DNA of 64,000 nt. Source: Clostridia bacterium. Lineage in GTDB: Bacteria > Bacillota > Clostridia > TANB77 > CAG-465. Positions 6,417 to 23,778 of this stretch are shown here, piece after piece. Each line of letters starts with the position of its first letter. Position 1 is the first letter of the stretch. Location: NCBI GenBank assembly GCA_017626395.1, contig JAGAIU010000069.1, positions 34,015 to 98,014 of the forward strand, read 5' to 3'. The translations under genes and the position numbers were made by a program. The notes beneath the pieces are model-generated. The model made no database searches. It was not told the origin of the DNA and was given only the letters and a program-made list of their open reading frames with translations.

Positions 6417-7106
6417 ATGTTAGAGGTATTACAGAATATAATAAGTACAAGTGAATTTCAATTATTCTTTAAATTAATACTCGTATCAGCTCTATCTGGA
6501 TTAATTGGATTTGAAAGAGAACACTCTAGTAAACCAGCTGGATTTAGAACTCACGTGCTTGTGGGTATAAGTGCTGTTTTAGTAATGACATGTGGAGTAG
6601 AGCTTGCAACTAAGTATGGAAATAACGATCCATCTAGAATGCCAGCACAACTTTTATCTGGTATAGGTTTTATAGGTGCAGGAACTATACTAAGTAACGG
6701 ATTTAAAGTAAAAGGGTTAACTACTGCATCAGGACTTTTAGCGGTAACTTGTATTGGTATGTGTGTAGGTGCAGGACTATATTGGTATGCAATAATTGCT
6801 ACATTAATAGTATTTGTTATCTTAAAATACTCATATTTAATAAATGCTCAACTTGAACACAGTATGGAATTTAAGTTTAAAGTTTCTACTAATTTTCCAA
6901 AAGAAGTATTAGATAAAGTAAATGAACTTTTAGAAAAATATGAAGTTGAAATAAAAAAAGTAAGACTTATGGAACCAACAGAGGATGAACTAAGAGAAGA
7001 AGGATATATTCTTTATGCTTGTCGTGCAAATAGTGGTTTCAATAAAAATAAATTTTTAACAGAAATGATGGAAATCGAAAGAGTTAAGCAAGTTAACGAG
7101 TTCTAA
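6417..7106 (+). CDS. MgtC/SapB family membrane protein
   Basis: 229 aa. GLIGFEREHSSKPAGFRTHVLV signature, four to five TM segments, soluble C-terminal domain. Confidence 0.85.
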   Translation: MLEVLQNIISTSEFQLFFKLILVSALSGLIGFEREHSSKPAGFRTHVLVGISAVLVMTCGVELATKYGNNDPSRMPAQLLSGIGFIGAGTILSNGFKVKGLTTASGLLAVTCIGMCVGAGLYWYAIIATLIVFVILKYSYLINAQLEHSMEFKFKVSTNFPKEVLDKVNELLEKYEVEIKKVRLMEPTEDELREEGYILYACRANSGFNKNKFLTEMMEIERVKQVNEF

Positions 7107-9474: not shown

Positions 9475-9517
9475 GTTATATATGAAATAAGAAAAAGAAG
9501 TATACTCATTGTTTATA

Positions 9518-9546
9518 TTGAAATATAAACAAAAAAGTGATATAAT
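9518..9546 (+). promoter_or_regulatory. extended -10 promoter (copy 1 of a twin pair)
   Basis: TTGAAA (9518-9523), 17 nt, TGATATAAT (9538-9546). Confidence 0.55.
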
Positions 9547-9552
9547 ATAGGT

Positions 9553-9626
9553 GTATATAAGGTTTACAAACACCTTATATACTTAAAAATATTATTTTAA
9601 GGGGTAGAGAAATCTACTCCTTTTTA
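9553..9626 (+). ncRNA. candidate small RNA (about 75 nt)
   Basis: Sits between promoter copy 1 and a terminator. 5' hairpin is GTATATAAGG / CCTTATATAC (9553-9582). An AU-rich spacer follows, then hairpin GGGGTAGA / TCTACTCC (9601-9620) plus TTTTT. No ORF. Confidence 0.3.
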
Positions 9627-9628
9627 TG

Positions 9629-9657
9629 TTGAAATCTTAGTATAAAAGTGATATAAT
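9629..9657 (+). promoter_or_regulatory. extended -10 promoter (copy 2 of the twin pair)
   Basis: TTGAAA (9629-9634), 17 nt, TGATATAAT (9649-9657). Shares the string AAAAGTGATATAATAT with copy 1. Confidence 0.55.
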
Positions 9658-9800
9658 ATTCACATAATTCTGTATATTATATATACAGCTTATCCATAAT
9701 TAGATTTTACCAATTAAGTAAAATTAGTTAAATTATGTTGAATTATACAGCATATATTAGAACCATTAGCTAACAAACTCTCAAAAAGGAGTGTTTTATT

Positions 9801-10097
9801 ATGAAAAATAATATTTTTAAAAAAATAGCTAATGGAGAAACTTCTATTAGCGCTAAAGTTTGTAATTTTAATTTAAGAGTTGAGGAATTAGAAGATCTAA
9901 AAGTAAAACTTGAAGTATCTAGTGGAGATAAAGAATTAGATAAGAAATATCAGAGAATATATTTTTCTAAACTTTATGAACTTCAAATGTTGTTTTCTGA
10001 AATAGAGGAAGATAATATAGTATACTTTAGAGGAACTTTAAGACTTATCGTATCTAATTTAAAACATAAATTAGATTTAGTTAATATTAGAAAATAA
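9801..10097 (+). CDS. hypothetical protein
   Basis: 98-aa ORF, RBS AAAGGAG upstream, no motif recognised. Confidence 0.5.
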   Translation: MKNNIFKKIANGETSISAKVCNFNLRVEELEDLKVKLEVSSGDKELDKKYQRIYFSKLYELQMLFSEIEEDNIVYFRGTLRLIVSNLKHKLDLVNIRK

Positions 10098-10184
10098 TAT
10101 TAGTATTCTAAATTCTTAATATGAAATTATTAAAAAGGAACAAAGATACGAGCTGTATATTGAGTTCTGGTGCTAATGGATTGA

Positions 10185-10211
10185 AAGCAAGGATTTAATC
10201 CTTGCTTTTTA
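10185..10211 (+). terminator. intrinsic terminator
   Basis: AAGCAAGGAT / ATCCTTGCTT stem plus TTTT. Confidence 0.7.
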
Positions 10212-10287
10212 TTATATACAACAATATAAATTGTTGATTATATTTTTTCACTATGATAAAATCTTCATATAATCAAAGGAGAGATAT

Positions 10288-11649
10288 ATGTTAGAGAAAA
10301 TATTTAAATTAAAAGAAAATAAGACAACAGTTTTAACAGAATTTATTGCAGGACTAACAACTTTTATGGCAATGGCATATGTTATTTTTATTAATCCAGC
10401 AATACTTTCTAATACAGGTATGGATTATAATGCAGTATATGTTGCAACAATAATAGCTTCAATGATAGGAACAATATTTTTAGGTGTTGTAGCGAATGTA
10501 CCATATGTACAAAGTGCTGGTCTTGGACTTAATGCATTATTTACATATACAATATGTGGTACTATGGGATTTACTTGGCAACAAGCATTAGCAATGGTAT
10601 TTATTTGTGGTGTTATTAATGTATTAATTACAGTTACAAGTATAAGAAAGCGAATAATTAAAGCTATACCAGAATTTATGCAAGAAGCAATAACAGTTGG
10701 TATAGGACTATTTATTGCATATATTGGAATAAAAAGTGCAGGTTTAATAGAGTTTTCTGTATCAGCAGTAAATAATGGAATAGCACTTGCGGGAGATACT
10801 GTACCACAACTTGCATTATTTAATAACAAAGAAGTAATACTTGCACTTATTGGAATAGTATTAACAGGAATTTTAGTATCTAAAAAGGTTAAAAATTCAT
10901 ATTTAATATCAATTATAGCAACAACAATAATAGGTATATTTATGGGGGTTACAACTTTACCAGATTTTTCAAATTATAGTGCTATTCCATCTTTAGAACC
11001 TACATTTTTAAAACTAGATTTTAAAGGGCTATTTACTGCAGAAGCAGGAATAGTAGTTGTTATTATGACAATATTTGCATTAGTAATATCAGATCTTTTT
11101 GATACTATAGGTACTTTTATAGGCACAGGAAAGAAATCTGGAATATTTAAATTAGATGAAAATGGTAATATGCCTAAAAATTTAGAAAAAGCATTAGCTT
11201 GTGATTCTTCAACAACAATATTAGGTGCATTACTTGGCACAAGTAATGTTACAACATATGTAGAAAGTAGTGTTGGAATAGAAGCTGGTGGAAGAACAGG
11301 ACTAACTGCTGTGTTTGCTGCTTTATGCTTTGGATTATCTTTATTCTTAAGTCCAATAGTAGCTTGTGTTCCAATGGCAGCTATAGCACCTATATTAATA
11401 TTTGTAGGTCTATCTATGCTTGAAAATATAGTAAAGATAAATTGGAAAGATATTATAATCGCTATACCAGCATTCTTTATTATAATTATGATGCCATTAT
11501 CATATTCAATAACTACAGGAATACAATTTGGCTTTATAATGTATGCAATAGTAAGTTTAGTAAATAAAAAAGGAAAAGAAGTTTCTCCTATAATTTATAT
11601 ACTTTCATTACTATTTATATTTAGTTTTATATATAATGCAATAAGTTAA
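10288..11649 (+). CDS. NCS2-family purine permease (AzgA/PbuG-type adenine/guanine/hypoxanthine permease)
   Basis: 453 aa. N-terminus FKLKENKTTVLTEFIAGLTTFMAMAYVIFINP is typical of this family. Multi-TM throughout. Confidence 0.8.
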   Translation: MLEKIFKLKENKTTVLTEFIAGLTTFMAMAYVIFINPAILSNTGMDYNAVYVATIIASMIGTIFLGVVANVPYVQSAGLGLNALFTYTICGTMGFTWQQALAMVFICGVINVLITVTSIRKRIIKAIPEFMQEAITVGIGLFIAYIGIKSAGLIEFSVSAVNNGIALAGDTVPQLALFNNKEVILALIGIVLTGILVSKKVKNSYLISIIATTIIGIFMGVTTLPDFSNYSAIPSLEPTFLKLDFKGLFTAEAGIVVVIMTIFALVISDLFDTIGTFIGTGKKSGIFKLDENGNMPKNLEKALACDSSTTILGALLGTSNVTTYVESSVGIEAGGRTGLTAVFAALCFGLSLFLSPIVACVPMAAIAPILIFVGLSMLENIVKINWKDIIIAIPAFFIIIMMPLSYSITTGIQFGFIMYAIVSLVNKKGKEVSPIIYILSLLFIFSFIYNAIS

Positions 11650-11665
11650 TATAAGGAGATAATTA

Positions 11666-12193
11666 ATGTATAAAGATAAAAAAATAATATATATTTATGG
11701 TGCAAGTGGTGCTGGCTCTACAACACTTGGAAGTAAATTAGTAGAAAAATATAATGGTGCATTAATAGATACAGATGAGTATTTTTGGAGTAACGATACA
11801 CCAGAAAAAAGATACAAAAGTATGTTAAAAGATGTTAAAGAGGCTAATACAAGTTTAGTAGTAATTACAGGAAGTTTTTGGAACTGGGATTACGACTATT
11901 CAGAATTAATAACCTATATAGATAAATTTGTGCGAGTAATGTTAGATAAAAATATTCGTCTTGAAAGATTACAAAAACGAGAAGAAGCAAGATATGGAGA
12001 TAGAATAAAAGAAGGTGGAAATTTATATAATAAACACACAGAATTTATTAAATGGGCTTCTTTTTACGATGATGGAGATTTATCTACAAGAAGTTTAGCA
12101 TCACATAAATATTTTGAAGATAAATACAATGTAACACCAATTATTATAGATTCAAAAAATGATATTGAATATAATTTGAGTTGTATTTTATAG
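11666..12193 (+). CDS. P-loop NTPase/kinase-like protein
   Basis: 175 aa with Walker A YGASGAGSTTLG near the N-terminus. Confidence 0.5.
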   Translation: MYKDKKIIYIYGASGAGSTTLGSKLVEKYNGALIDTDEYFWSNDTPEKRYKSMLKDVKEANTSLVVITGSFWNWDYDYSELITYIDKFVRVMLDKNIRLERLQKREEARYGDRIKEGGNLYNKHTEFIKWASFYDDGDLSTRSLASHKYFEDKYNVTPIIIDSKNDIEYNLSCIL

Positions 12194-12203
12194 GAGAAAA
12201 AAT

Positions 12204-12755
12204 ATGATTATAGAAAGTAATAGATTAATTTTAAGAAATTGGAAAGATGAAGATATTAATGATTTAGTAGAAGGCTTAAATAATATAAACGTTTCTAAAT
12301 GGATGGCTGGAGTTCCGTTTCCATATACAGAAAATGATGCTAAAAATTTTATTGAATATACTAAAACTTTAGATTCTAAATCTAAAATATCATTAGCTAT
12401 AGTTTTAAAGGAAAATAATAAGGTTATAGGTGGTACTGAGATAACTAATATTAATACAAAAGACGGAACTGCTGGTGGCGGAATATGGCTTAATGAAGAG
12501 TATCAAAAAAACGGGTATGGGACTGAAGCTTTTAGTATGAAAATAAAATATGCTTTTGATGTATTAGGTTTAAGAAGGATGGAAAATGGATATTTTCCAG
12601 GAAATGATAAATCTGAGAGAATGCAGTTAAAACTAGGATTTAAAAATGAAGGCATAAGAAGAAAGAAATTTTTATGCTTAGCTACTAACGAATATGTAGA
12701 TGAATGTATTACTGGATTATTAAAAGAAGAATTTGTTGAGTTTAATGTAAAATAG
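12204..12755 (+). CDS. GNAT family N-acetyltransferase (RimJ/RimL-like)
   Basis: 183 aa. N-terminal ESNRLILRNWKDEDI, then QKNGYGTEA and LGLRRM motifs typical of GNAT. Confidence 0.7.
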   Translation: MIIESNRLILRNWKDEDINDLVEGLNNINVSKWMAGVPFPYTENDAKNFIEYTKTLDSKSKISLAIVLKENNKVIGGTEITNINTKDGTAGGGIWLNEEYQKNGYGTEAFSMKIKYAFDVLGLRRMENGYFPGNDKSERMQLKLGFKNEGIRRKKFLCLATNEYVDECITGLLKEEFVEFNVK

Positions 12756-12797
12756 CGCAATATTAGATAAATAGTAAGATGTAGGGGAGTAATTTAA

Positions 12798-12984
12798 ATG
12801 TTTCAAAGAAATAAAAACAGTTATAAAATTGTTGCAGTATGCACAAATGGAGATAAAAAAAGGTAGATATACTTTTATAGAGGACTATGATGAAAATTGG
12901 GATACAATAGCAGAGAGAATGTTCTATAATGAATTTGGAGTTAATCCTACAGAAATGAAAATCGAATCAAGAGAAAGAATATAA
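12798..12984 (+). pseudogene. small ORF split by an A7 tract
   Basis: RBS GGGGAG plus ATG 12798 opens a 22-codon frame ending at TAG 12864-12866 just after AAAAAAA (12855-12861). The +1 frame continues open to TAA 12982-12984. Six A residues would give one roughly 61-aa ORF. Confidence 0.25.
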
Positions 12985-13027
12985 GAGCAAATTATAATTT
13001 AGCAATCTTATGTATGAATTATAAAGA

Positions 13028-13065
13028 AAAATACCAAGCAAATTAAAAAGCTTGGTATTTTTTAT
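13028..13065 (+). terminator. intrinsic terminator
   Basis: AAATACCAAGC / GCTTGGTATTT stem plus T-run. Confidence 0.7.
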
Positions 13066-13132
13066 TTATATTACATAAAACCTTGAAAAATCAATACTTT
13101 TGTAGTAAAATATTAATCATTAAGGTGAAAAT

Positions 13133-13450
13133 ATGTTTGTAAAAAATGATAATGAGTTTATTTGTGTAAACTGTAATAAAAAAGTAGAAAAATTAAAATA
13201 TACATCAAGAGATCACTGCAATCATTGCCTTCATTCAATACATATAGATATAACACCAGGAGATAGGGCAAATGATTGTTTAGGGCTACTTGTACCAATT
13301 AATGTTATAGATACTGCTAAAAAAGGTAAAGTAATTATCTATAGATGTAAAAAATGCGGTCAAGAATTAAGAAATATAGTAGCTAGTGATGATAGTCAAG
13401 ATGAAATATATAAAGTTGTAGAAAACTATGCAAAAGGAGTTGTAAGATAA
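13133..13450 (+). CDS. RNHCP-domain zinc-ribbon protein
   Basis: 105 aa. CVNC...RDHCNHCLHSIH...CKKC pattern matches the RNHCP domain arrangement. Confidence 0.6.
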   Translation: MFVKNDNEFICVNCNKKVEKLKYTSRDHCNHCLHSIHIDITPGDRANDCLGLLVPINVIDTAKKGKVIIYRCKKCGQELRNIVASDDSQDEIYKVVENYAKGVVR

Positions 13451-13570
13451 TGGAATATAATAAGTTATTATATAGATATGTGGTAAGGAGACGTAGATGG
13501 GAGTAATCCCGAGCATACTAAAGAAACTAATAAAAATATCATATATATAATAATGGAAGGAAAGAAGAAA

Positions 13571-15292
13571 ATGGAAGAAAAGAAAAAGATAATTGCAAGC
13601 ATGATATATAATGCTTTGCAAAATTCAGATATAACAATAGAAGAAATTGAGTCAAAAATAGAGACTCCAAAAGATAAGAAAAATGGAGATTTTGCATATC
13701 CATGTTTCAATTTAGCTAAAGTTTTAAGAAATTCACCAATAAACATAGCTAATCAAATAAAAGAAAATATTGAAGAAAATGAAAATATATCTAAAGTAGA
13801 AGTAGTAAATGGTTTTTTAAACTTCTATTTAAATAGTGAAAATATAGTAAATGATGTATTAAAAGGAATAGTAGAAAAAGGTACAGAATATGGAAAATCT
13901 ACTGAAGGAAATGGTATAAACATTATAGTTGAATATTCTTCACCAAATATTGCTAAACCATTCCACTTAGGACATTTTAGAAATACAGTACTAGGTAATG
14001 CATTATATTCTTTATATAAAGAACTTGGATATAATGTAACAGGTATAAACCACTTAGGAGACTGGGGAAGACAATTTGGTATCTTAATTGAAGGATATAG
14101 AAGATTTAAAGATGAATATGATTTAGAAAATAATCCTTTAGAAGCTTTATCTGATATTTATGTAAGAATAAATAAAATAGCTAAAGAAGATGAAGAAGTT
14201 ATGAACATAGCTCGTGAAAACTTCAAAAAATTAGAAGAAGGCGATGAAGAATTAACTAAATTATGGGCATACTTTAGAGAAGTATCTTTAAAAGAATATA
14301 ACAGAATATATAAAATTTTAGGAAGTCAATTTGATTCATATAATGGAGAAGCTTTCTATAATGATAAAATGCAAGAAGTAGTAGATATACTAGATAAAAA
14401 TGGTGCTCTTATTGATAGTCAAGGAGCAAAAGTTGTAAATGTTGGCGATGATATGCCACCATGTATTGTACTTAAATCTAATGGCTCAACTATATATGCA
14501 ACTCGTGATTTAGCTGCTATATTATATAGAACAAGAACTTATGATTTTACTAAATGTATATACATTACTGCAACAGAACAAATACTACACTTTAAACAAG
14601 TATTTGAAGCTGCAAAACATTTAATAGATGCTGAACATCAAAAAGGTTTAGTACACGTATCTTATGGTATGATAAGACTTAAAACTGGTAAAATGTCTAC
14701 TCGTGAAGGTAATGTAATCTATGTTACAGAACTTTTAGACGAAGCAGTAAAAAAAGCTAAAGATATAATAGTAAATAAAAATCCAAACTTAGAAAATGCA
14801 GATACAGTTGCAAATCAAGTAGGTGTAGGTGCATTAATATTTAACTATCTAAAGAGTGGTAAAAACAAAGACATTATATTTGATTTAGATGATACATTAA
14901 GATTTGATGGAGAAACAGGACCATATGTACAATATACATATGTAAGAACAAAATCTATACTTGAAAAAGTGGGATTTAATGCAGAAAATATAGATATAAA
15001 TTCTATAGATTTTAACGCATTAAAAGAAAAACAAGAAGTAGAATTAATTAAAGAATTAGAAAAATTTGAAAGTATAATTAGAAAAGCTGCAAATGACTAT
15101 GAGCCATCTGTACTTGCAAGATACTTAATAGATGTAGCAACTGCATTTTCAAGATTCTATAATGAATGTAGCGTAGCAAATCTAGAAGATGAAAATCTAA
15201 AAGCTGCAAGATGTGTTCTAGTATATGCAACATCTATAGTAATTAAAAAAGGTTTATCGCTTCTTGGAATTGATTGTCCAGAAAAAATGTAA
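13571..15292 (+). CDS. argS: arginine--tRNA ligase
   Basis: Class I HIGH-type motif PFHLGHFRN, full-length ArgRS-like architecture. ATG 13571 has RBS GGAAGG. ATG 13553 from the ORF track lacks one. Confidence 0.9.
   Translation: MEEKKKIIASMIYNALQNSDITIEEIESKIETPKDKKNGDFAYPCFNLAKVLRNSPINIANQIKENIEENENISKVEVVNGFLNFYLNSENIVNDVLKGIVEKGTEYGKSTEGNGINIIVEYSSPNIAKPFHLGHFRNTVLGNALYSLYKELGYNVTGINHLGDWGRQFGILIEGYRRFKDEYDLENNPLEALSDIYVRINKIAKEDEEVMNIARENFKKLEEGDEELTKLWAYFREVSLKEYNRIYKILGSQFDSYNGEAFYNDKMQEVVDILDKNGALIDSQGAKVVNVGDDMPPCIVLKSNGSTIYATRDLAAILYRTRTYDFTKCIYITATEQILHFKQVFEAAKHLIDAEHQKGLVHVSYGMIRLKTGKMSTREGNVIYVTELLDEAVKKAKDIIVNKNPNLENADTVANQVGVGALIFNYLKSGKNKDIIFDLDDTLRFDGETGPYVQYTYVRTKSILEKVGFNAENIDINSIDFNALKEKQEVELIKELEKFESIIRKAANDYEPSVLARYLIDVATAFSRFYNECSVANLEDENLKAARCVLVYATSIVIKKGLSLLGIDCPEKM
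15208..15292 (+). repeat. direct repeat copy 1 (functional 3' end of argS)
   Basis: 85 nt recur at 20972-21056 with four substitutions. Confidence 0.85.
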
Positions 15293-15304
15293 GTAATTTT
15301 AATA

Positions 15305-15333
15305 AAAGTGCCTAAAAAATTAGGCACTTTTTA
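15305..15333 (+). terminator. intrinsic terminator after argS
   Basis: AAGTGCCTA / TAGGCACTT stem plus TTTT. Confidence 0.75.
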
Positions 15334-15364
15334 CTATTTTTAGAAAAAAATAAAGAAATTTTTA

Positions 15365-15405
15365 AAAATATGCAACCTTTTTATATAAAAAAGCGGTCTT
15401 AATAG
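15365..15405 (+). promoter_or_regulatory. ECF-sigma-type promoter, copy 1
   Basis: AAAAATATGCAACCTTTTTA...GTCTTAATA. TGCAAC at 15371-15376 and GTC at 15396-15398. Both blocks are identical to the copy upstream of the ECF sigma gene. Confidence 0.5.
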
Positions 15406-15733
15406 AGTAAGGATAAAATTGGATGTGCACTCAGTTTTAAAATATATTAATACAATAAAATTTTTAGGTATAGGTAAAAATAGTTTTCTAATTTACTGAT
15501 TAGTGAAAGAAACAAAATTGTGCTAATATATATTACTTGCAATAAAAAGTTTTTTAATCTATATACGAAAAAATTGGCATTATAGTTACCAAATTATAAA
15601 TATTAACTATACTTTTTGATTAATAAAAATACTTACAGTGCTTATACTAATTATCCTTTCTATAGAATCCTTTAATTTTATATGATAAAATGTAATTAGT
15701 AGAATAAAAGTAATAAGTTAGGAGGAGAAAATT

Positions 15734-16039
15734 ATGGAAAATTTATGGGTTATATACTGGTTATTTTTAGCATTTGCTTTAGTTTTTGGAGTGATACACA
15801 CTATTAAAATAAAAAAGTGTACAGGAATAATGCAAATAGTTTTATCAATTATTTTACCAATATGGGCATTGGTTTTTAGTTTAAAAAGAAATTGGATAGA
15901 TGGAAACGAAAGTGAAATAGAATTTTTATTATCAAAAATAATAGAGGGCTCTATTGAAGCTATAATTATAGTTATACTATTTATAGTATTATTTGGAGTA
16001 ACCATATATAATTTATTAAATTATATAAGAAATAAATAG
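15734..16039 (+). CDS. small integral membrane protein
   Basis: 101 aa, three hydrophobic segments, RBS AGGAGGAG. Confidence 0.55.
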   Translation: MENLWVIYWLFLAFALVFGVIHTIKIKKCTGIMQIVLSIILPIWALVFSLKRNWIDGNESEIEFLLSKIIEGSIEAIIIVILFIVLFGVTIYNLLNYIRNK

Positions 16040-16140
16040 TATGAAATTTATTTTTTAAAATTATAGCTTAATTATTTTAAGACATCTTTTTAATAATAAT
16101 GTAAGAAGTGTGCAGATGTAAAAGAAAGGAAGGAAAATTT

Positions 16141-16869
16141 ATGAGAAAAAGTTTTATTTTAATTTTATTTGTGATTACTTTGTTATTACCTTTTTCACAG
16201 GTATATGCTACAGAGGATACTTCTATATCTCAAGAAATGATTAATAATAAAGAAATATTAATTCAAAACAAAATTAATGAATTTATAGATTCAAAAGGAA
16301 AAAGTGATATCAATTACTTATCTGTAGAGGAAGAAATAGAATTAGTAAAAATAATAGAAGAATATAAATATACCATAAATAATAATGAATATTCAATTAA
16401 TGGAGTAATTGAATCTGGAATATATGCTTCAACTGCTGATATAGGTGGATATATATTTTCATCTTTAGATTCAAGAACATCTGGTTGGAATCATGGACAT
16501 GCAGGAATTGGTTATTCTTCAGGAGGAAATGTAATAGAGGCTAATCCTAATGTTGGGGTAAAATTATACTCAAACCGTGTTGAAGAGTATTGGGGAAATT
16601 GTCAAACAGGTGGCATATATTGGGTTAATGGAGCTTCTTCTTCGCAATATACAATTGCCAAGAATTATGCATATAGTAAACTTGGGTGTGACTATAACTT
16701 TAATGCTTTGGATACTAATAGTTTTTATTGCAGTGAGTTAGTTTATTATGCATGGGATGCAGCTGGATATAATATAGCTTCTTCTAGAGTATGGGGAACA
16801 CTTATATTACCATCTCAAATTATGAATGATGGTGATACAGTATTAGGAGTAACATTCCCTCTTAGCTAA
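16141..16869 (+). CDS. secreted permuted-papain (YiiX/C92, NlpC/P60-like) cysteine amidase
   Basis: Signal peptide MRKSFILILFVITLLLPFSQVYA. His before Cys order (WNHGHAGIGY ... SFYCSELVYYAWD) typical of the permuted C92 family. Confidence 0.55.
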   Translation: MRKSFILILFVITLLLPFSQVYATEDTSISQEMINNKEILIQNKINEFIDSKGKSDINYLSVEEEIELVKIIEEYKYTINNNEYSINGVIESGIYASTADIGGYIFSSLDSRTSGWNHGHAGIGYSSGGNVIEANPNVGVKLYSNRVEEYWGNCQTGGIYWVNGASSSQYTIAKNYAYSKLGCDYNFNALDTNSFYCSELVYYAWDAAGYNIASSRVWGTLILPSQIMNDGDTVLGVTFPLS

Positions 16870-16880
16870 AGTAAAGATAA

Positions 16881-17858
16881 ATGAAAATAAAAAAAATATA
16901 TAAATTTCTAATTATTTTATTAATAATTATTATAGTTCTCCTAATTAAGTCAAAAAGCATATATGTATTCGAAACTGAAAATAAACAAATATACCTTATT
17001 CAAATTTCTAGTATAAATTCGGGTAATGTTGTAAATAAATTTCAATATTATAATGAAAACGGAAAAATAATTAAAGAAGAAAAGTTTGAAGACAGTGGGG
17101 ACGTTAGCTATAGTTGTACAAATATGAATTATATTTATTCGTTTGGACCTGGTGGATTGTATAAAACAGATTCGATAAATATGGAAACAATAAAATTATC
17201 TGATGAAGATATAAATATTGTGAAATTTTATAACAATAAAATGTATTATTTTGTTAATAATGGTTTTAAGTCTAATGGATATGAAAGTAAAATTTGCACA
17301 GAAAATGAGTGTATAAAGGTAGATTTTTTTATATTAGATTTTGCAATTTATAATAATAAATATTATATTTTAGGAATGGACTCACTATATGTATATAATG
17401 TAAGCAATGATTTGATAAAAAAAATAGATTTATCAGATTTTGGAGCATACCAAAAAATTTTAGAAATACAAAATAAAATATTTATTGTAAACGAGTCAAG
17501 TTTTTATGAAATAAAAGAGGAAAAAATTGAATTTTTTTCAGATAATAATATAATAAAAGATCTAAATTTTAAAAGTTACAAAAATTCAAAAGGTGAACAA
17601 TATATTATTGATAATGATATGAAAAAAATTCTTAAAATAGAATTATTAGATAATTCTATGAACATAAAAGAAGAAAAAGATATTAGTTCACAATTTAAAA
17701 TATCATATGCATTTAACCTTAATGAAAGAATAGGCTACAGAATTGATTATGAAAAGAAAGAAATAATAATTAGTGAATTAAATAACAATATTTTAGCAAA
17801 ATTCAATATTAATATACATAGGAATGAGGCTATATTTAAAATATATAAACTAAAGTAA
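16881..17858 (+). CDS. membrane-anchored hypothetical protein
   Basis: 325 aa, N-terminal TM FLIILLIIIIVLLI, Asn/Tyr/Lys-rich extracytoplasmic part. Confidence 0.55.
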   Translation: MKIKKIYKFLIILLIIIIVLLIKSKSIYVFETENKQIYLIQISSINSGNVVNKFQYYNENGKIIKEEKFEDSGDVSYSCTNMNYIYSFGPGGLYKTDSINMETIKLSDEDINIVKFYNNKMYYFVNNGFKSNGYESKICTENECIKVDFFILDFAIYNNKYYILGMDSLYVYNVSNDLIKKIDLSDFGAYQKILEIQNKIFIVNESSFYEIKEEKIEFFSDNNIIKDLNFKSYKNSKGEQYIIDNDMKKILKIELLDNSMNIKEEKDISSQFKISYAFNLNERIGYRIDYEKKEIIISELNNNILAKFNINIHRNEAIFKIYKLK

Positions 17859-17921
17859 AGAAATGCAAAAAATAATATGAGTATATTAATAGAAGTGAAA
17901 GATATATACAATTAGAAGAAA

Positions 17922-17957
17922 AAAGTGCTTGAAAAAATATTTTCCAGGCACTTTTAA
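17922..17957 (+). terminator. intrinsic terminator
   Basis: AAAGTGCTTGAAA / TTTCCAGGCACTTT imperfect stem plus T-run. Confidence 0.5.
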
Positions 17958-17972
17958 TTTAAAAAAAAAATA

Positions 17973-18012
17973 AAAATATGCAACCTTTTTACTAAAAAAT
18001 ACTGTCTTAATA
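17973..18012 (+). promoter_or_regulatory. ECF-sigma-type promoter, copy 2 (likely autoregulatory)
   Basis: TGCAAC at 17979-17984 and GTC at 18004-18006, same spacing as copy 1. About 95 nt upstream of the sigma factor gene. Confidence 0.55.
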
Positions 18013-18105
18013 ATAGGGGGATATTAAGTATATAAGTCTTTTATTATACTTCCCATCTGTGATATAATGTATAAAACTTTTGTTTTTGAAAGGAAATAAA
18101 AAATT

Positions 18106-18633
18106 ATGGAAGAACTTTTAAAAAAAATAAAATTTGGAGATGAGCAAGCTTTCGAAACCATAGTTAAAACTTACGAAAAACAACTATTAGTCATTGCAGA
18201 ACTAAGAATTGGAGATGCATACTTAGCTAAAGACGCTGTTCAAGAAACTTTTCTGAGTTTATATTTAAACTCTTGGAAAATAAAAAATTCATCAAAGTTA
18301 AAATCTTGGCTTGCAATAGTTCTAGTTAGTAAATGTAATAATATACTAGAAAATAATAAATTTGCACAAATATCTTTAGAAGCTAATGAATTAGAGAATT
18401 TTATATATTCCGAAGACGAGTTTGAAAATGTAGTAGAAAATCTCGATTTTAAAAAATATATAAGCTGCTTAGATATCGATGAAAGAACAATTATAGCAAT
18501 GTATTATGATGATAATTATACTACCAAAGAAATATCTAATATTTTACATATCAGTCAAGGTACAATAAAAAGTAAAATTTCTAGAGCTAAAATTAAGTTG
18601 AAAAATAGGACAAGGGGTGAAATAAGTGAATAA
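18106..18633 (+). CDS. ECF-type (sigma-70 family) RNA polymerase sigma factor
   Basis: 175 aa. Region 2 is AKDAVQETFLSLY. Region 4 HTH is YTTKEISNILHISQGTIKSKISRAK. Confidence 0.85.
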   Translation: MEELLKKIKFGDEQAFETIVKTYEKQLLVIAELRIGDAYLAKDAVQETFLSLYLNSWKIKNSSKLKSWLAIVLVSKCNNILENNKFAQISLEANELENFIYSEDEFENVVENLDFKKYISCLDIDERTIIAMYYDDNYTTKEISNILHISQGTIKSKISRAKIKLKNRTRGEISE

Positions 18634-19426
18634 TTATAAAGATGATATAGATAGGATATTGTATGAACAAATTAAAAGTATGAAAGTACAAAAATTTAAT
18701 AAAGATGAAATTAAACATATTATTCAAAAAGCTAAAACTATTAAAAGAAATAGGATAATATCTAAAGTAGCTATATTAACAATGATAATTTTGATGACAG
18801 GGATTTTTTTGTATAGTAATAATATGCTGAATATTAAAGGAAAACTAGATAAGATTAATTTGGAATTTAACAGAGGTAATGAAATTGCTAAAGCGGAATT
18901 ATATAATGAGAGAAAGGTACAAGCTGAACAAGAATATGTACCAAATACCATAATATATAAAGAAACAGTTAAAAATGAAAAATATGTAAATGAAGTTGAA
19001 ATTTCCCAAATCTATATTGTAAAAATAAATAAAATTCAAGAATCTTATGTTATATCTCAGACACCATTTACTAAATTAAATGTAAATATATTAAAATGTA
19101 TAAAAGGTAAAGATACAGAAAATATAAATATTATTTTGAATGAGGGAAAAATATCTATTTTTGATTTAGAGAAAACTGATTTAAATAAATTTATTGATGA
19201 TAGATACAAAAATTTATCTGAAGAATATAAGAAGAATACTTTTGTAAGAGTAATATCGGAAAATAATTTTAAAAAGATAGCTGAACCAGTAGAAGGAAAA
19301 GTATACATAGTTTCTCTAAATAGCAATAATGAAGTTATTAGTAATTGTAATTATCCTTTTTTAAGATTTGATTTAAATAAAAATTTATATGAAAAAGAGA
19401 ATATTTGGTATGAATTAGATTTGTAA
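18626..19426 (+). CDS. putative anti-sigma factor (single-pass membrane protein)
   Basis: GTG start overlaps the sigma gene stop by 8 nt. 266 aa with one TM (VAILTMIILMTGIFLY) after a short cytoplasmic N-terminus. Confidence 0.55.
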   Translation: MNNYKDDIDRILYEQIKSMKVQKFNKDEIKHIIQKAKTIKRNRIISKVAILTMIILMTGIFLYSNNMLNIKGKLDKINLEFNRGNEIAKAELYNERKVQAEQEYVPNTIIYKETVKNEKYVNEVEISQIYIVKINKIQESYVISQTPFTKLNVNILKCIKGKDTENINIILNEGKISIFDLEKTDLNKFIDDRYKNLSEEYKKNTFVRVISENNFKKIAEPVEGKVYIVSLNSNNEVISNCNYPFLRFDLNKNLYEKENIWYELDL

Positions 19427-19522
19427 TTTGTGTAATAATGAGCTTTATCTAGAAAGCGAGGTGTGATTTTAAATTAGATAAAAGTTTTTCATATATAAGT
19501 ATAAAAAGGAGTGAATATATTT

Positions 19523-20116
19523 ATGAACAATTTAGTAAAAAAAATTACAATGTCAATAAGCGCAGTTATATTTGGAATATTTACAACATCTAGTATTTTT
19601 GCAATGTCGCCAACATATCCCAATGATGCAAAATTTAGTAGAGGTGTGAGTAATGCCTATTATTATGTGGATTCATCTGCTAGTAGTTATACTTCTAAAA
19701 TAAATGAAGCGGTAAACAATTGGGTAGATACTGGATATGGTTGGAATCCTATATATTTATATCCAGTTTCTTCAAACTATGCTACACATATAGATTATTA
19801 TGTTATTGACTACAGAAATGATGCAGTATTATCTAATATTAATAATAATGCATATACTACATTTTGGGATATTAATGAGTTGGAATTAGCTTATAATGTA
19901 TCAGGAGAGCCGACCAGCGATTATTACTATACCGAAGTAAAAATTACCGATTATCGAGAAATAGATACTAGTACAATTATACACGAAATGGGACATTGCT
20001 TCGGATTGAAACATTCTTCAAATCTTTATAGTATAATGTATCCTACTAGTTCTTTAAGAATGGTTAATAGAGTGGCAAAAGATGATCATGATACAATTAA
20101 TTATTTGTATAACTAA
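19523..20116 (+). CDS. small secreted matrixin-like (metzincin) zinc metalloprotease
   Basis: Signal peptide, HEMGHCFGLKH (HExxHxxGxxH) and Met-turn SIMYP. Confidence 0.75.
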   Translation: MNNLVKKITMSISAVIFGIFTTSSIFAMSPTYPNDAKFSRGVSNAYYYVDSSASSYTSKINEAVNNWVDTGYGWNPIYLYPVSSNYATHIDYYVIDYRNDAVLSNINNNAYTTFWDINELELAYNVSGEPTSDYYYTEVKITDYREIDTSTIIHEMGHCFGLKHSSNLYSIMYPTSSLRMVNRVAKDDHDTINYLYN

Positions 20117-20128
20117 GGAGGAATAGTT

Positions 20129-20902
20129 ATGAAAAAATATATTTTAGGCATAGGAATTGTTATTATTATTATTATTATATTTGCATTAATTATATCAATA
20201 AATAGAGAAAAATTTAATACTAATTCAGATAAAGTAGAAGTTATGTCCCAGACGAAGAATAAGGTATATTATATATATACATATATTGATGAAGAAATAA
20301 AAAATAATAGTAGTATACAAATGATAAGCACAGAATTAGAAAATGAATATACACCAAAATTTATGTTGAACAATGCAGAAGCTATTGCTTTGGTAACAAT
20401 CATTGACTTAGATGGTGCGAGTATGGAATATGGTCCTTTTGGAATGACTTATGGAAAAGCGTTAGTAAATAATGTTATAAAAGGAAATATTAATTCAGGA
20501 GATGTAATAGAATATATAAAACCAGGTGGAACTATTTCGGTTTCACAATATGACAAATATGATGCTCCTGCTTCAGTTCAAAAAAGAGACTATCTAGCTA
20601 AAAAGGCCGGAATTGTAATCGATAAAGAGCATACTTATATAAATTTTAAATTTGAAAATGATATTGAGCTTGAGGCTGGAAAAACTTATTTAGTGTATTT
20701 GAATTATGTTAGAAATTATGATAAATATGAGATTATTGGATTAGGCAATGGAATAAGAGAAATAAATGTACCTAGAGCAACTAAAACGGTTACAACAACT
20801 AGTTTTAATATAGATGAATTACAAGTGAAAAATAACAAAACTGGAGAATGGGAATCATTAAATACATATGTTCAAAAAAATATTACAAAGTTAGATGAAT
20901 GA
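20129..20902 (+). CDS. membrane-anchored hypothetical protein
   Basis: 257 aa, N-terminal TM GIGIVIIIIIIFALIISI, RBS AGGAGG. Confidence 0.55.
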   Translation: MKKYILGIGIVIIIIIIFALIISINREKFNTNSDKVEVMSQTKNKVYYIYTYIDEEIKNNSSIQMISTELENEYTPKFMLNNAEAIALVTIIDLDGASMEYGPFGMTYGKALVNNVIKGNINSGDVIEYIKPGGTISVSQYDKYDAPASVQKRDYLAKKAGIVIDKEHTYINFKFENDIELEAGKTYLVYLNYVRNYDKYEIIGLGNGIREINVPRATKTVTTTSFNIDELQVKNNKTGEWESLNTYVQKNITKLDE

Positions 20903-20971
20903 CTGTAGAGAAAGATAAATTAAAATTATTTAATGGAATATTTGGATTAAAAAAATATGTTTTAAAATTAT

Positions 20972-21056
20972 AAGATGTATTCTAGTATATGCAACATCTA
21001 TAGTTATTAAAAAAGGTTTATCAATTCTTGGAATTGATTGTCCAGAAAAAATGTAA
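20972..21056 (+). pseudogene. orphan 3' fragment of argS (direct repeat copy 2)
   Basis: Encodes RCILVYATSIVIKKGLSILGIDCPEKM*, against RCVLVYATSIVIKKGLSLLGIDCPEKM* at the real argS end. Two synonymous and two conservative changes. Confidence 0.8.
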
Positions 21057-21064
21057 TTAATTGT

Positions 21065-21105
21065 ATAGCACTAAATGTTGATATTTTTTCAATATTTGGT
21101 GCTAT
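21065..21105 (+). terminator. hairpin after the orphan argS end
   Basis: 17-bp stem ATAGCACTAAATGTTGA / TCAATATTTGGTGCTAT with two G-U pairs. Confidence 0.5.
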
Positions 21106-21119
21106 TTATATTTTATATT

Positions 21120-21157
21120 AGAAGAAATAAAGTATTCGACTTTATTTCTTCTTTTTT
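21120..21157 (+). terminator. intrinsic terminator
   Basis: AGAAGAAATAAAG / CTTTATTTCTTCT stem plus TTTTT. Confidence 0.7.
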
Positions 21158-21332
21158 GACACGTTTTAGACCCTATTTTTATTTTGGATATAAACAAACG
21201 TTTGTTATAATATACATCGTAAAAGAAAGGAGGCAAAAACAAAATGGGATAGCAAATAAGAAGATGTTACATGTAGTAACAAATAAAATCAAAGTAAAAA
21301 ATGTTAAATGAAAGGGAGGAAACGAATGAAGT

Positions 21333-22462
21333 TAGAAGAGTACAAATCAGGCAAAGCTATAAAGATGAATGATTATAAAGCATTTATACCAAGCAAAATA
21401 AATTATAATTGGGGCTGGGATGATACTAAACTAGATAAGTTGTTATCAGAAGCTAATAGACAAATTGGTGAATTAAATGCTTATTCATTATTAATACCAA
21501 ATGTAGATTTATACATTAAAATGCACGTAAAAATTGAAGCTAATAAATCTAGTAAAATTGAAGGAACAAAAACAACAATAGAAGAAGATTTATTAGATGT
21601 AGAAGATATTGCTCCAGAAAAGAAAGATGATTGGGAAGAAGTACAAAATTATGTGAAAGCAACAAATTATGGAATAGAAAGAATAAAAGAAGGCTTTCCA
21701 GTATGCACAAGATTAATTAGAGAAATTCATGGAGTATTAATGAATGGAGTTAGAGGAGAACATAAAACTCCTGGAGAGTTTAGAACGTCACAAAATTGGA
21801 TTGGTGGCAGTATGCCAAGTACAGCTGTGTATGTCCCACCACCACATACTGAAATAGCGGAATGCTTATCTGATTTTGAGAAGTTTATGAATAATGAGGA
21901 GATAGATACTCCAGATTTAATTAAAATTGCAATTTTACATTATCAATTTGAATCTGTACATCCTTTTTTAGATGGAAATGGTAGAATAGGAAGACTATTA
22001 ATACCATTGTATATACAAAGTAAAGGTATGCTTGAAAAACCTTGTCTATATATTTCAGATTATATTGAAAGAAATAAAGAAGTATATTACGATAAACTTA
22101 CGAAAGTAAGAACTCATAATGATCTTATTGGCTGGATTAAATTTTTCTTGGAAGTAATAATTGAAACATCAAAAGCTGCAAAGGAAAAATTTAGAAGAGT
22201 TGTTGAACTAACTATAGAAATGGATAAGATTATAATGGATTTACCTGTAAAACCAGAAAATGCAAAGAAAGTAATAGATTTACTATATAATGAACCGATT
22301 GTATCAAGAAAGAAAATAATTGAAAACACAGGAATAAAGTTTACAACTTTAGTAGGAGTAATAAGAGCTTTTCAAGAAAAGGGAATTTTGATAGAAACAA
22401 CAGGATATAGTAGGAACCAAGTTTTTTCATTTCAAATATATATAGATTTATTTTTAAAATAG
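21333..22462 (+). CDS. Fic family protein (AMPylase-type) with N-terminal inhibitory motif and C-terminal wHTH-like region
   Basis: Active-site HPFLDGNGRIGR. Upstream SSKIEG fits (S/T)xxxE(G/N). ATG 21333 has RBS AGGGAGGA. Confidence 0.85.
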
Positions 22463-22466
22463 AGTT

Positions 22467-22855
22467 TATATTACGAAAAAATCCAAAAATTCGTAATATA
22501 AAAATCCATATTACGAAAAAAGCCGAAAATTCGTAATATAAAAATTTATATTACGAAAAAAGCCGAAAATTCGTGATATAAAAATCTATATCACGAAAAA
22601 AGCCGAAAATTCGTGATATAAAAATCTATATCACGAAAAATCAAGAAAATCTGTGATATAAAAAATTATATCACGAAAAAAGTGATATAAAAAAATATAA
22701 GGCGAAAAATACTAAAATTTCGTCCTACAGAAAAGTATAGGCCGAAAAATATTAAAAATCCGTCCTACAGAAAAGTATAGGTCAAAAAAAGTTAAAAATT
22801 TGCCCTATAAAAAATTATCGGTCAAAAAAGAGCAAAATTTTAACTTATAAAACTA
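22467..22855. repeat. tandem array of ten dyad-symmetric units (nine of 40 bp, one of 29 bp)
   Basis: Units start at 22467, 22507, 22547, 22587, 22627, 22667, 22696, 22736, 22776 and 22816. The prototype is TATATTACGAA-aaaagccgaaaa-TTCGTAATATA-aaaat. Units degenerate progressively rightwards. Confidence 0.9.
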
Positions 22856-22872
22856 TATATTATAATAACCGC

Positions 22873-23559: not shown

Positions 23560-23778
23560 ATGGGAAAATTAAAAGATGTAAACAAAAAAATCGAAGAGAC
23601 AGTAGTAGGTGGATACAAAAAGATTGAAGAAACAGTTGTAGATGGATATAAAAAAGTTGAAGATACTGTAGTTTCAGGATACAAAAAGGTAGAAGATAAA
23701 TTTGTTGACAAATTCTTAAAAAAAGATGGCGAAACTGTAGAAGAAGCTAAAGAAAGAATTAAAAAAGAACAAGAATAA
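23560..23778 (+). CDS. miniprotein with tandem 11-residue repeats
   Basis: 72 aa: KKIEETVVGGY / KKIEETVVDGY / KKVEDTVVSGY / KKVEDKFVDKF, then ...ETVEEAKERIKKEQE. RBS AAAGGAG. Paralog at 25778-26017. Confidence 0.65.
   Translation: MGKLKDVNKKIEETVVGGYKKIEETVVDGYKKVEDTVVSGYKKVEDKFVDKFLKKDGETVEEAKERIKKEQE

Follow-up and report, generated by a model that had tools for sequence, protein, structure and literature searches.

CIMEs and decayed ICE/IME remnants, for instance the ones that occupy the fda 3' end in Streptococcus thermophilus, consist of integrase-less cargo between direct repeats of the 3' end of a housekeeping gene that is itself intact, and their cargo is related to intact conjugative elements. 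The fda att sites are shorter than the repeat of 85-94 nt described below. In E. coli, prophage e14 and phage 21 sit at the icd 3' end; the incoming DNA brings slightly different last tens of codons and leaves the original tail orphaned at the far end. In Firmicutes, autoregulated ECF sigma/anti-sigma operons are known, for example those of SigV, SigM and SigW in B. subtilis, in which the sigma gene overlaps that of a single-pass membrane partner and an AAC...GTC-type promoter lies before the operon itself and before genes for envelope enzymes. Displacement of C-termini or 3' ends at Rhs and T6SS effector-immunity loci, for which homology-facilitated illegitimate recombination has been proposed (PMC5361080), provides a further precedent, in that a non-homologous segment joined to an upstream homologous anchor shifts the old 3' end downstream, with arrays forming between conserved flanks. 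The locus analysed here, an islet behind argS in a 64 kb window (the whole stretch of DNA studied), shares features with each of these. It differs from CIMEs in having no intact partner at the argS tail, no backbone debris and a sister lineage without the right repeat, and from e14 and phage 21, which keep their integrase and phage genes, in being cargo only. The Rhs and T6SS loci displace varied toxin/immunity tips, whereas here one near-identical, functionless end of a housekeeping gene is left behind. The islet is most likely a fresh case of a known scar, the immobile leftover of a mobile element that targets gene ends.

Direct reading and repeat search agree that the 3' 85 nt of argS have a second copy 5,764 nt downstream. 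It differs by four substitutions, the ones that the first-pass annotation had read: two synonymous (GTA/GTT, TCG/TCA) and two conservative (GTT/ATT, V/I; CTT/ATT, L/I). The similarity continues for 9 nt past the stop codon, to give a direct repeat of 94 nt in which 88 positions are identical (Table 1), and a 25-nt core of it occurs exactly twice in the window where shuffled sequence predicts 0.00 occurrences. The earlier proposal that DNA had entered the 3' end of argS and restored its reading frame is borne out by a full-length argS, with its frame rebuilt at the left copy, followed by a duplicated tail. Gene callers start argS at the ATG at 13571, a further ATG lying upstream at 13553, and the 573-aa product has exact matches on 8 contigs. 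As the repeat is the exact argS tail through the stop and the gene has been rebuilt, the arrangement bears the hallmark of gene-end-targeting integration. As a candidate for microhomology at the right joint, only a patchy TTAAAA-N4-AAGATGT similarity is seen upstream of the repeat. The downstream copy had been taken to be decaying, a description that does not fit: rep2 has no indel and no stop, is invariant across all islet-bearing strains, and departs from live argS only where live argS alleles themselves vary. In the same strains rep1 is polymorphic: 5 sites of the 85 nt segregate, and pi is 3.3%. The two copies have separate termination signals, also as first suggested. T1 is present in the sister lineage L086, where its stem carries a compensatory G-C to A-T change, and h1, which is unrelated to T1, is missing from haplotypes of types B and C. 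In islet-free type C contigs the argS stop is followed by 12 nt and then T2. rep2 is followed by h1 and then by T2, which is directly 3' of argS in type C, as expected of a displaced tail that keeps its former downstream context. An empty site had been expected to run from argS into both downstream terminators (21057-21160); type C does so for T2, but not for the h1 hairpin.

Table 1. Features of the argS islet and its borders, in window coordinates.
Feature	Position	Strand	Basis
argS (arginyl-tRNA synthetase), intact	13571..15292	+	Pfam Arg_tRNA_synt_N, tRNA-synt_1d, DALR_1
rep1, live argS tail (85 nt incl. stop) + 9 nt; left repeat copy	15208..15301	+	repeat search
T1, terminator hairpin now serving argS	15304..15331	+	terminator scan
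P1, ECF-type promoter motif TGCAAC-N19-GTCTTAATA, upstream of i1-C92-i3	15371..15404	+	motif scan
i1, 101-aa small multi-pass membrane protein	15734..16039	+	ORF; no significant family
Peptidase_C92, secreted (YaeF/YiiX permuted papain-like amidase)	16141..16869	+	Pfam 2e-11
i3, 325-aa N-terminally anchored protein	16881..17858	+	ORF; always paired with C92
T1', imperfect hairpin resembling T1	17924..17956	+	sequence and alignment; missed by strict terminator scan
P2, second ECF-type promoter motif, upstream of sigma gene (candidate autoregulatory promoter)	17979..18012	+	repeat and motif scan
ECF sigma factor, 175 aa	18106..18633	+	TIGR02937 sigma70-ECF 75.7 bits (cutoff 42.9)
Putative single-pass anti-sigma factor, 266 aa	18626..19426	+	position and hydrophobic segment VAILTMIILMTGIFLY
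M10/metzincin-like Zn protease, secreted (HEMGHCFGLKH)	19523..20116	+	Pfam Peptidase_M10 6.9e-10
i7, 257-aa N-terminally anchored protein	20129..20902	+	ORF; constant partner of M10 gene
69-nt spacer ending at novel joint (TTTTAAAATTAT|AAGATGT)	20903..20971	+	sequence comparison
rep2, orphan argS tail (85 nt incl. stop + 9 nt)	20972..21065	+	repeat search
h1, terminator hairpin travelling with rep2	21065..21105	+	terminator scan
T2, terminator common to all haplotypes	21120..21152	+	terminator scan

Conspecific metagenomic contigs come in two forms, with the islet and without it. The islet-free form, type C, has flanks 98-98.7% identical to those of the window and neither islet nor rep2; the islet is also absent from about 25 related species. 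Universal presence in the lineage, which had been named beforehand as one way for the insertion reading to fail, thus does not apply, and the DNA between the repeats is accessory. The variable unit is larger than first drawn, however, since the whole 11.2 kb from argS to DUF1294 is a multi-haplotype region, in which conserved flanks enclose at least three haplotypes, and the islet within it is composite: T1' and P2 repeat the terminator-promoter unit T1-P1, and i1-C92-i3 is a nested cassette between the two. TnpB/IS605-type genes occur elsewhere in this variable region in some strains. Type C is not the exact pre-insertion site, with a precise attB, because h1, Fic and TetR-217aa are missing from it too; its 422-aa gene shows only 81.5% identity. 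argS itself is a mosaic of recombined alleles in which SNP blocks reach the stop codon. Among five strains of the islet-bearing type A, diversity is 0.127% in the islet versus 1.48% in argS and 0.4-0.7% on the right side (Fisher 2e-19 and 4e-11), indicating that the islet haplotype now present arose once, and recently.

The same cargo genes are found in other Clostridia on conjugative elements with integrases. In L105, a FemAB-sigma-anti-sigma-M10-252aa cassette has sortase/pilin genes on one side and Tn916-like regulators with two large serine recombinases on the other. In L114, homologs of M10 and i7 (51% and 46%) and of C92 and i3 (69% and 62% amino-acid identity) are cargo, flanked on one side by a TrbL/PrgI/VirB4-like/sortase/CHAP conjugation module and on the other by two tyrosine integrases immediately next to uvrB. 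Because these elements carry homologs of the cassette, the cargo belongs to a mobile pool. A homologous cassette in the MAG LOHA17_bin.027 (L102) stands in a 6.3 kb islet without an integrase, at the uvrB site where L114, another species, holds its full element, and this uvrB islet is the exact parallel to the argS islet. Both have homologous sigma/anti-sigma/M10 cassettes (with a 252-aa protein in the uvrB islet and i7 in the argS islet), the same promoter motif, no integrase, and a duplicated end of an essential gene on both sides. The uvrB islet differs in that its target is the 5' end of the gene, its repeat, 47 nt long and without a mismatch, duplicates the first 15 codons, a CHAP-gene remnant is kept, and FemAB replaces i1-C92-i3. 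The argS of the same MAG has a single tail and no islet.

Our preferred but tentative reading, which we would place a little short of an even chance, is that the islet is the relic of a site-specific integration into the argS tail. A non-autonomous islet (15293-20971) would have entered within the last 85 nt of argS, bringing its own argS tail and terminator (the rep1 side and T1), and the resident tail, with h1 and T2, would have been pushed 5.7 kb downstream as rep2. The most likely agent is the site-specific integrase of an integrative (conjugative) element whose recombination and transfer genes have since been lost, in which case rep1 and rep2 would be relics of attL and attR, as in a remnant of cis-mobilizable-element type, and an excised form would be expected to carry the circular junction …TTTTAAAATTAT-AAGATGT…TAA-GTAATTTTAATAAAAGTGCC. 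Today the islet would be immobile; a single haplotype class of the species would inherit it and exchange it by homologous recombination. The sister lineage L086 has a diverged four-gene ECF core at the same site behind argS, without a second argS copy. Its cassette differs from that of the window by 22-30% at the nucleotide level, and adjacent argS by 15.4% at 4-fold sites; as the cassettes have diverged more than argS has at these sites, they are two old versions at the same site, as expected of a reused att site.

Several observations stand against an integrase relic. The first-pass annotation had reported no integrase, transposase or tRNA target, and our scans are equally clean: Pfam and NCBIfam profiles found no tyrosine, serine or DDE recombinase between the repeats in any of the seven ORFs (intergenic gaps are at most 442 nt), no excisionase, relaxase or backbone fragment was found there, and in the whole window tRNAs occur only at 51461 and 60161. 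In blastn comparisons of 15200-21330 with the ICE-like L114, L105 and L102 loci, matches were confined to cargo genes and the promoter leader, with no transfer or backbone fragments. The islet has very clean margins, with 70 nt at its left end and 69 nt at its right, whereas about 1.8 kb of debris persists in L102. In about 25 related species, no second argS tail lies within 10 kb of argS and no other element was found at or near the gene, and exact-pattern searches of GTDB representatives, JGI metagenome contigs and IMG/VR returned no orphan argS tail and no other element at the argS tail. The question had been raised whether the islet moves as a unit and whether any versions keep a recombinase; the islet was never seen at any site other than argS, and no version with a recombinase was found at the argS tail. 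The missing right repeat in L086 and the lack of a precise attB in type C weigh in the same direction.

The main alternative, which we consider somewhat unlikely but substantial, is homology-facilitated illegitimate recombination, or 3'-end displacement, with no recombinase ever involved. A linear argS-T1-P-cassette fragment, of the kind seen in L086, would have entered an argS-h1-T2-Fic strain by a homologous left crossover in or upstream of argS, its right end being joined illegitimately 85 nt before the recipient stop; the complete tail of the donor would then finish argS, and the tail and terminators of the recipient would be left orphaned. In agreement with this, the left junction is not novel. 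In L086, argS-T1-P is contiguous and orthologous (83-94% identity with the window; 83% for the left junction) with the compensatory change in T1, and the left junction is older than the right because L086 has its ECF core there without the second argS copy. Only the joint of the 69 nt with rep2 is unique to type A, and neither L086 nor type C has a homolog of the 69-nt spacer. A cassette at this position without the repeat, as in L086, is the expectation for ordinary two-sided homologous replacement, and the argS mosaic with at least three argS-DUF1294 haplotypes resembles replacement islands driven by homologous recombination. No recombinase or backbone debris is present, and nothing else was found to use the argS tail as an att site. 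Orphaned 3' ends of such origin have been proposed for Rhs and T6SS effector loci, but such events are described there as rare (PMC5361080). No contig with argS-h1-T2-Fic, the recipient haplotype here and the product of precise deletion on the integrase reading, turned up among about 20 contexts, and the uvrB-bracketed cassette in L102, at the site of an integrase-bearing element in L114, would have to be a coincidence.

A purely local rearrangement is improbable. The argS tail and islet would have been duplicated in tandem and the second islet copy deleted or, alternatively, the argS tail and terminator copied to an ectopic position in the spacer that follows i7, the two copies then staying alike through gene conversion. 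Exchange between copies is suggested by L083/L071, in which rep1 equals rep2 at all 85 positions, and by L091, its sister haplotype, which differs from it only at 15241, 15260 and 15271, all within the repeat; such SNP-level patterns in the 85-nt repeat could reflect strain mixing, because all strain data are metagenome assemblies. Short duplicated units (T1-P1 and T1'-P2) also occur inside the islet. However, rep2 is followed by h1 rather than by a relative of T1, and so was not copied from the present argS end; no other live allele, whether of type A, B or C, has its 15260A (Ile); and more steps are needed than for integration or displacement. Insertion of a transposon, IS element or prophage with target-site duplication could be suggested by the direct repeats at both ends and the TnpB/IS605-type genes elsewhere in the variable region, but the gene content and the length of the repeat effectively refute it, there being no terminal inverted repeats, transposase or phage genes at the islet, no phage contig with an argS tail in IMG/VR, and an imperfect duplication of 85-94 nt that far exceeds those made by transposases.

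The cargo is, judged from its sequence, a self-contained regulatory unit of an ECF sigma factor and a putative anti-sigma factor, with two copies of a conserved ECF-type promoter. Besides its TIGR02937 match, the sigma factor scores 43.9 bits for Sigma70_r4_2 (Pfam cutoff 25.7) and 23.9 bits for Sigma70_r2, just below the cutoff of 24. The putative anti-sigma gene begins 8 nt before the end of the sigma gene, a position conserved in all cassettes; its product matches no family or anti-sigma domain in Pfam or NCBIfam and has only 3 database relatives, that of L086 being 39% identical. The same holds for i1, i3 and i7, so that four of the seven islet ORFs have no family in these databases. The promoter motif TGCAAC-N19-GTCTTAATA has only two matches in the 64 kb, against 0.01 expected, and is kept upstream of homologous cassettes in four lineages (L086, L102, L105 and L108); its spacer is about 1-2 nt longer than usual ECF spacing. 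The sigma factor and its membrane partner would drive P2, before their own operon, and P1, before i1-C92-i3, and would switch on secreted or membrane-anchored hydrolases (the C92 amidase and M10 metzincin) with their anchored partners, which probably act on the cell envelope. This arrangement recalls the SigV, SigM and SigW operons, but differs in having no recognised anti-sigma domain and in a regulon (C92, M10 and anchored proteins) that is not a characterised one. The M10 gene is kept in every cassette. The C92 gene is intact in the window and carries a TGG to TAG nonsense change at 16487 in several strains, and the length of a poly-Ile tract in i7 varies among strains.

The block behind argS (the islet, 15293-20971) is bracketed by a direct repeat of 94 nt (88/94 identical), whose first 85 nt are the final 27 codons and stop codon of argS. 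The window holds exactly two copies of a 25-nt core of the repeat, where 0.00 would be expected. The coding differences between the live tail (rep1) and the orphan tail (rep2), read directly in both copies, are the four listed in the first-pass annotation (V/I, L/I and two synonymous changes), which also correctly gave each tail a terminator of its own, T1 behind the live gene and h1 with T2 behind the orphan. The argS-specific sequence just before the live tail is …AAAGCTGC; the tail ends in ATGTAA, after which the islet starts with GTAATTTTAATAAAAGTGCC. The islet closes on its right with …GTTTTAAAATTAT, rep2 opens with AAGATGT, and the h1-side sequence just after the rep2 tail is TTAATTGTATAGCAC. 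In most strains sharing the window's arrangement (type A), a 52-aa open reading frame (window 20899-21056), whose start overlaps the i7 stop in an ATGA, continues in phase into the orphan tail of ArgS, its product being MTVEKDKLKLFNGIFGLKKICFKII followed by RCILVY...EKM, 24 residues fused to the ArgS tail. Expression of rep2 through this fusion was set aside, as the frame is probably fortuitous and, in the window, a 1-nt change disrupts it (a 7-A instead of an 8-A run at 20949).

Features of the argS islet and its boundaries, in window coordinates
Feature	Position	Strand	Description
rep1	15208-15301		live argS tail copy of the direct repeat
T1	15304-15331		terminator-like hairpin behind live argS (terminator scan)
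P1	15371-15404		promoter motif copy upstream of i1
i1		+	101-aa membrane protein
C92		+	secreted Peptidase_C92 amidase
i3		+	325-aa anchored protein
P2	17979-18012		promoter motif copy upstream of the sigma gene
sigma		+	ECF sigma factor (TIGR02937, score over cutoff)
anti-sigma		+	presumed; single-pass, no family, overlaps the sigma gene
M10		+	secreted M10-like metzincin
i7		+	257-aa anchored protein
rep2	20972-21065		orphan argS tail copy of the direct repeat
h1	21065-21105		terminator-like hairpin behind the orphan tail (terminator scan)
T2	21120-21152		terminator-like hairpin, likewise behind the orphan tail (terminator scan)

All seven islet open reading frames lie on the same strand. 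Profile searches of these frames revealed no recombinase, transposase or phage gene and a tRNA scan of the islet revealed no tRNA, in agreement with the earlier statement that no integrase, transposase or tRNA target is present; both tRNAs of the window are more than 30 kb away, and an Rfam scan found no RNA family in the islet region. The ECF-type promoter motif TGCAAC-N19-GTCTTAATA has just two matches in the 64 kb, P1 and P2, against 0.01 expected. A similar hairpin precedes each of them, and as such a terminator-promoter unit of ~100 nt is duplicated around i1-C92-i3. The window and two loci away from argS (L102 and L105) share a conserved TGTGATATAAT a little upstream of the start of the sigma gene, resembling an extended -10 that would give basal expression. 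The anti-sigma would keep the ECF sigma at the membrane, and on a signal the freed sigma would switch on P2, driving its own operon including M10 and i7, and P1, driving i1, C92 and i3. FemAB occupies the first slot in other versions of the cassette and, taken with the secreted and anchored hydrolases, points to a predicted role in cell-wall remodelling or as a lytic-enzyme/immunity system. C92 carries a nonsense mutation that splits the gene (TGG to TAG at 16486-16488) in L071-L074, L076 and L078, and is unbroken in the window, L075, L077 and L079; the presence of this mutation in many strains indicates that C92 is dispensable. The poly-Ile stretch of the i7 membrane anchor (window 20160 region, codons 11-17) is 5 to 13 Ile long depending on the strain, through slippage of a 3-nt repeat. 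The comparison of base composition suggested in the first-pass annotation gave a mild difference (GC 23.7% in the islet vs 27.1% in the window; GC3 0.13-0.19 vs 0.08-0.14 in core genes), which is not diagnostic.

The host, an uncultured Clostridia bacterium of low GC content, comes from metagenomes of the ruminant gut; source metagenomes include SAMN15830106, SAMN15829984 and SAMN06685576. Its ArgS has relatives of at most 84% identity among GTDB representatives. GTDB relatives keep the RNHCP-argS pair and lack window 15293 to ~26480, with synteny returning at the DUF1294 gene, and a second argS tail within 10 kb is absent from all of them. Conspecific contigs, like all comparative sequences metagenome assemblies, were found through exact-protein look-ups, which sample part of the diversity (ArgS matched in its 573-aa form; the 579-aa form, from an upstream ATG, has no record), and show three arrangements. 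Type A, to which the window and about two thirds of contexts belong, NCBI MAG GCA_017451785.1 among them, has the order argS-T1-P1-i1-C92-i3-P2-sigma-anti-M10-i7-69 nt-rep2-h1-T2-Fic-40-nt repeats-TetR-...-DUF1294. Type B is a single contig from a sister lineage (L086; flanks 89-94% identical), in which argS is followed by T1, one promoter, a sigma'-anti'-M10'-254aa' cassette, 26 nt and T2-Fic, without i1-C92-i3, rep2 or h1. Type C, found on at least six contigs with flanks 98-98.7% identical, has after the argS stop 12 nt, T2, 40-nt repeats, an allele of the 423-aa window gene (81.5% identical), and DUF1294, and lacks the islet, rep2, h1, Fic and TetR. The 422-aa protein encoded by this allele was considered as a TnpB, which its identity with the window gene excludes. 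An empty site with argS running directly into the terminators at 21057-21160 had been predicted, which holds in part: islet-free conspecifics of type C do exist, with argS running into T2, but they are not the exact pre-insertion site. Nor is type C a deletion product of rep1 x rep2 recombination, since what follows its argS stop, TATTAAAAATTT and after it T2, is unlike the sequence behind rep2, and Fic is missing too. The rep2/h1 junction had no exact match in JGI metagenome contigs or GTDB representatives, collections that do not contain the species itself. The argS tail, put forward earlier as a probe for mobile versions of the islet, led to no other element or orphan tail: in exact-pattern scans it had no match in IMG/VR, and its nine GTDB and three JGI matches all lie inside full-length or contig-truncated argS. 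A homolog search with the anti-sigma returned three conspecific fragments and nothing else. We note that L015 (CALXBV010000058.1, from a related MAG) breaks off within argS ~70 nt before the stop, near the equivalent of the repeat start; strain variation, or a repeat at the corresponding position of that genome, could be the cause.

Although the downstream copy had been described as decaying, rep2 is identical in all type A strains compared, and rep1 is polymorphic at exactly the sites that distinguish the two copies in the window. Apart from rep1 of L071/L083, 15260A (Ile) is restricted to rep2, and it agrees with the consensus of other genera. The downstream copy is thus an intact, frozen allele that differs from most live ones by 3-4 substitutions. 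Across its whole length argS is a patchwork of recombined allele blocks. Its 3' half (window 14400-15292) contains deeply diverged blocks in mosaic combinations within the species (96.4% identity between the window and L072/L073/L075), and divergence at argS 4-fold sites within the species is 7-8%. In L071/L083 rep1 equals rep2 over all 85 nt, and the sister haplotype L074/L091 departs from it at 15241, 15260 and 15271 alone, a pattern that points to conversion of rep1 from rep2 in L071/L083, though it may be an assembly artefact. Nucleotide diversity among five type A strains is 1.48% in argS, 3.3% in rep1, 0.127% in the islet, zero in rep2 plus h1, 0.42% in Fic and 0.66% in the rest of the right-hand region (Fisher tests for the islet, 2e-19 vs the left flank and 4e-11 vs the right). 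SNPs are dense to ~15271 and again only from ~21586-21841, and together with the low diversity this gap argues for a recent single origin of the present islet haplotype. The right edge of the low-diversity tract is not at rep2, but extends ~780 nt beyond it into Fic, and low diversity was therefore rejected as a sign of the islet moving between strains as a unit; that idea is also weakened because recombination with islet-free strains must likewise stop at the argS stop codon.

Protein identity between the window and L086 is 96% for ArgS and 94% for Fic, and 74% for sigma, 64% for M10, 56% for i7 and 39% for the anti-sigma; nucleotide divergence is 22-30% in the cassette vs 15.4% at argS 4-fold sites, so that two anciently diverged versions occupy one position behind argS. 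The T1-P segments are 83% identical, with a compensatory stem change. The single promoter unit of L086 is P1-like on its left and P2-like on its right, which identifies i1-C92-i3 as a nested indel.

Sigma homologs of 50-64% identity occur in other Clostridia, and the four-gene core with the same promoter motif ahead lies away from argS at three loci: at L105 behind FemAB, beside Tn916-like regulators and two large serine recombinases; at L108 in a further, different context; and at L102 behind FemAB, directly upstream of uvrB. At L102 (JBJEXW010000025.1, MAG LOHA17_bin.027) the first 15 codons of uvrB are perfectly duplicated (47 nt, 6869-6915 and 13176-13222), enclosing a 6.3 kb integrase-less islet with a CHAP-gene remnant, FemAB and the sigma/anti-sigma/M10/252-aa cassette; the argS of the same MAG (L009) has one tail. 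The same cassette has thus been stranded without a recombinase between duplicated essential-gene ends at least twice. In another species the uvrB site holds an intact, integrase-bearing element (L114), reached via i3 homologs and covered over 21 kb of ERZ14499352 NODE_135 on the uvrB side. It comprises a conjugative-element-like region (TrbL, PrgI, VirB4-like ATPase, sortase, CHAP), followed by M10 and i7-like genes, C92 and i3-like genes, further M10 genes, a regulator and two tyrosine integrases, and ends directly at uvrB.

We tentatively read the argS islet as the relic of an integrase-mediated element at the argS tail, a reading to which we give somewhat less than an even chance. An element with an argS tail and T1 at one end would recombine with the chromosomal tail, and deletion would later strip its transfer and recombination genes. 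The architecture, the mobile-element source of the cargo, the uvrB parallel and the two old cassette versions at one site all argue for such a relic; against it are the lack of a recombinase or debris in the islet and of any element or orphan tail at argS in the collections searched, the absence of rep2 from L086, and very clean islet boundaries. The left junction looks native, argS recombination is pervasive and the interval behind argS has several haplotypes, as would be expected had a donor argS-T1-P-...-i7-69 nt entered by homologous crossover in argS, with an illegitimate right joint made 85 nt before the recipient's stop and the old tail displaced. Such tail displacement by homology-facilitated illegitimate recombination has been proposed for Rhs and T6SS loci (PMC5361080), but these events are reported to be rare and the L102 case would have to be a coincidence, and we consider this origin rather unlikely. 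Local duplication or conversion fits poorly and is improbable, and transposition, which also fits poorly, is scarcely credible. The two leading models, an integrase and illegitimate recombination, yield an identical product, and the argS islet is a CIME-like or 3'-displacement scar, a kind already known. The observation behind the first-pass annotation is as such confirmed and its interpretation supported, with corrections.

It is conceivable, though we would not expect it, that the window islet and the uvrB islet of L102 are products of one recurrent process in low-GC gut Clostridia, in which conjugative elements with an ECF-sigma-controlled hydrolase cassette enter essential-gene ends (argS 3', uvrB 5'), rebuild them and shed all but the cassette, leaving a domesticated stress/cell-wall regulon spread by homologous recombination. 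If true, this would imply a still undiscovered integrase or element specific for the argS tail, and M10 and C92, joined by FemAB in some versions, might constitute a lytic-enzyme/immunity set. The locus leaves current concepts unchanged, and shows, with population data from uncultured ruminant-gut Clostridia, accessory regulons becoming fixed beside essential genes. A duplicated gene end shows where the DNA came in, conjugative elements are the pool that supplied the cargo, and once stranded the block is shuffled by homologous recombination only. The conserved promoter and four-gene core make up a small, previously unnamed ECF regulon. For annotation, an orphan gene tail with a terminator can flag an islet boundary without any recombinase, and a 'diverged' copy may be no more than one preserved allele of a gene that recombines heavily.

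Upstream of RNHCP-argS, window 9475-13070 is also strain-variable and absent from other species, its 175-aa and GNAT genes being swapped for other small open reading frames in several conspecific contigs. Some type A strains, though not the window, have a TnpB-like gene (OrfB_IS605 and Cas12f1-like_TNB) between the 130-aa gene and DUF1294, at L071 18640-19839, L074 13685-14953 and also in L093 and L097 (equivalent to window ~26430). A PD-(D/E)XK 'transposase' family protein (PF12784, of the Rpn/YhgA-like recombination-promoting nuclease type; E = 6.7e-43) is encoded at window 37767-38687, ~17 kb from the islet. The convergent Fic and TetR genes enclose an array of ~10 tandem 40-nt units at window 22427-22871, each with a 28-nt palindrome of the TTCGTGATATAAAAATCTATATCACGAA type; the array looks REP-like, other type A strains lack its unit 22624-22663, and a similar array lies directly behind T2 in type C. 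Three and a half tandem 33-nt (11-aa) repeats of the VVxGYKKxEET type occur at window 23574-23705 in a 78-aa open reading frame, which elsewhere is 52, 72 or 74 aa long, depending on the strain.
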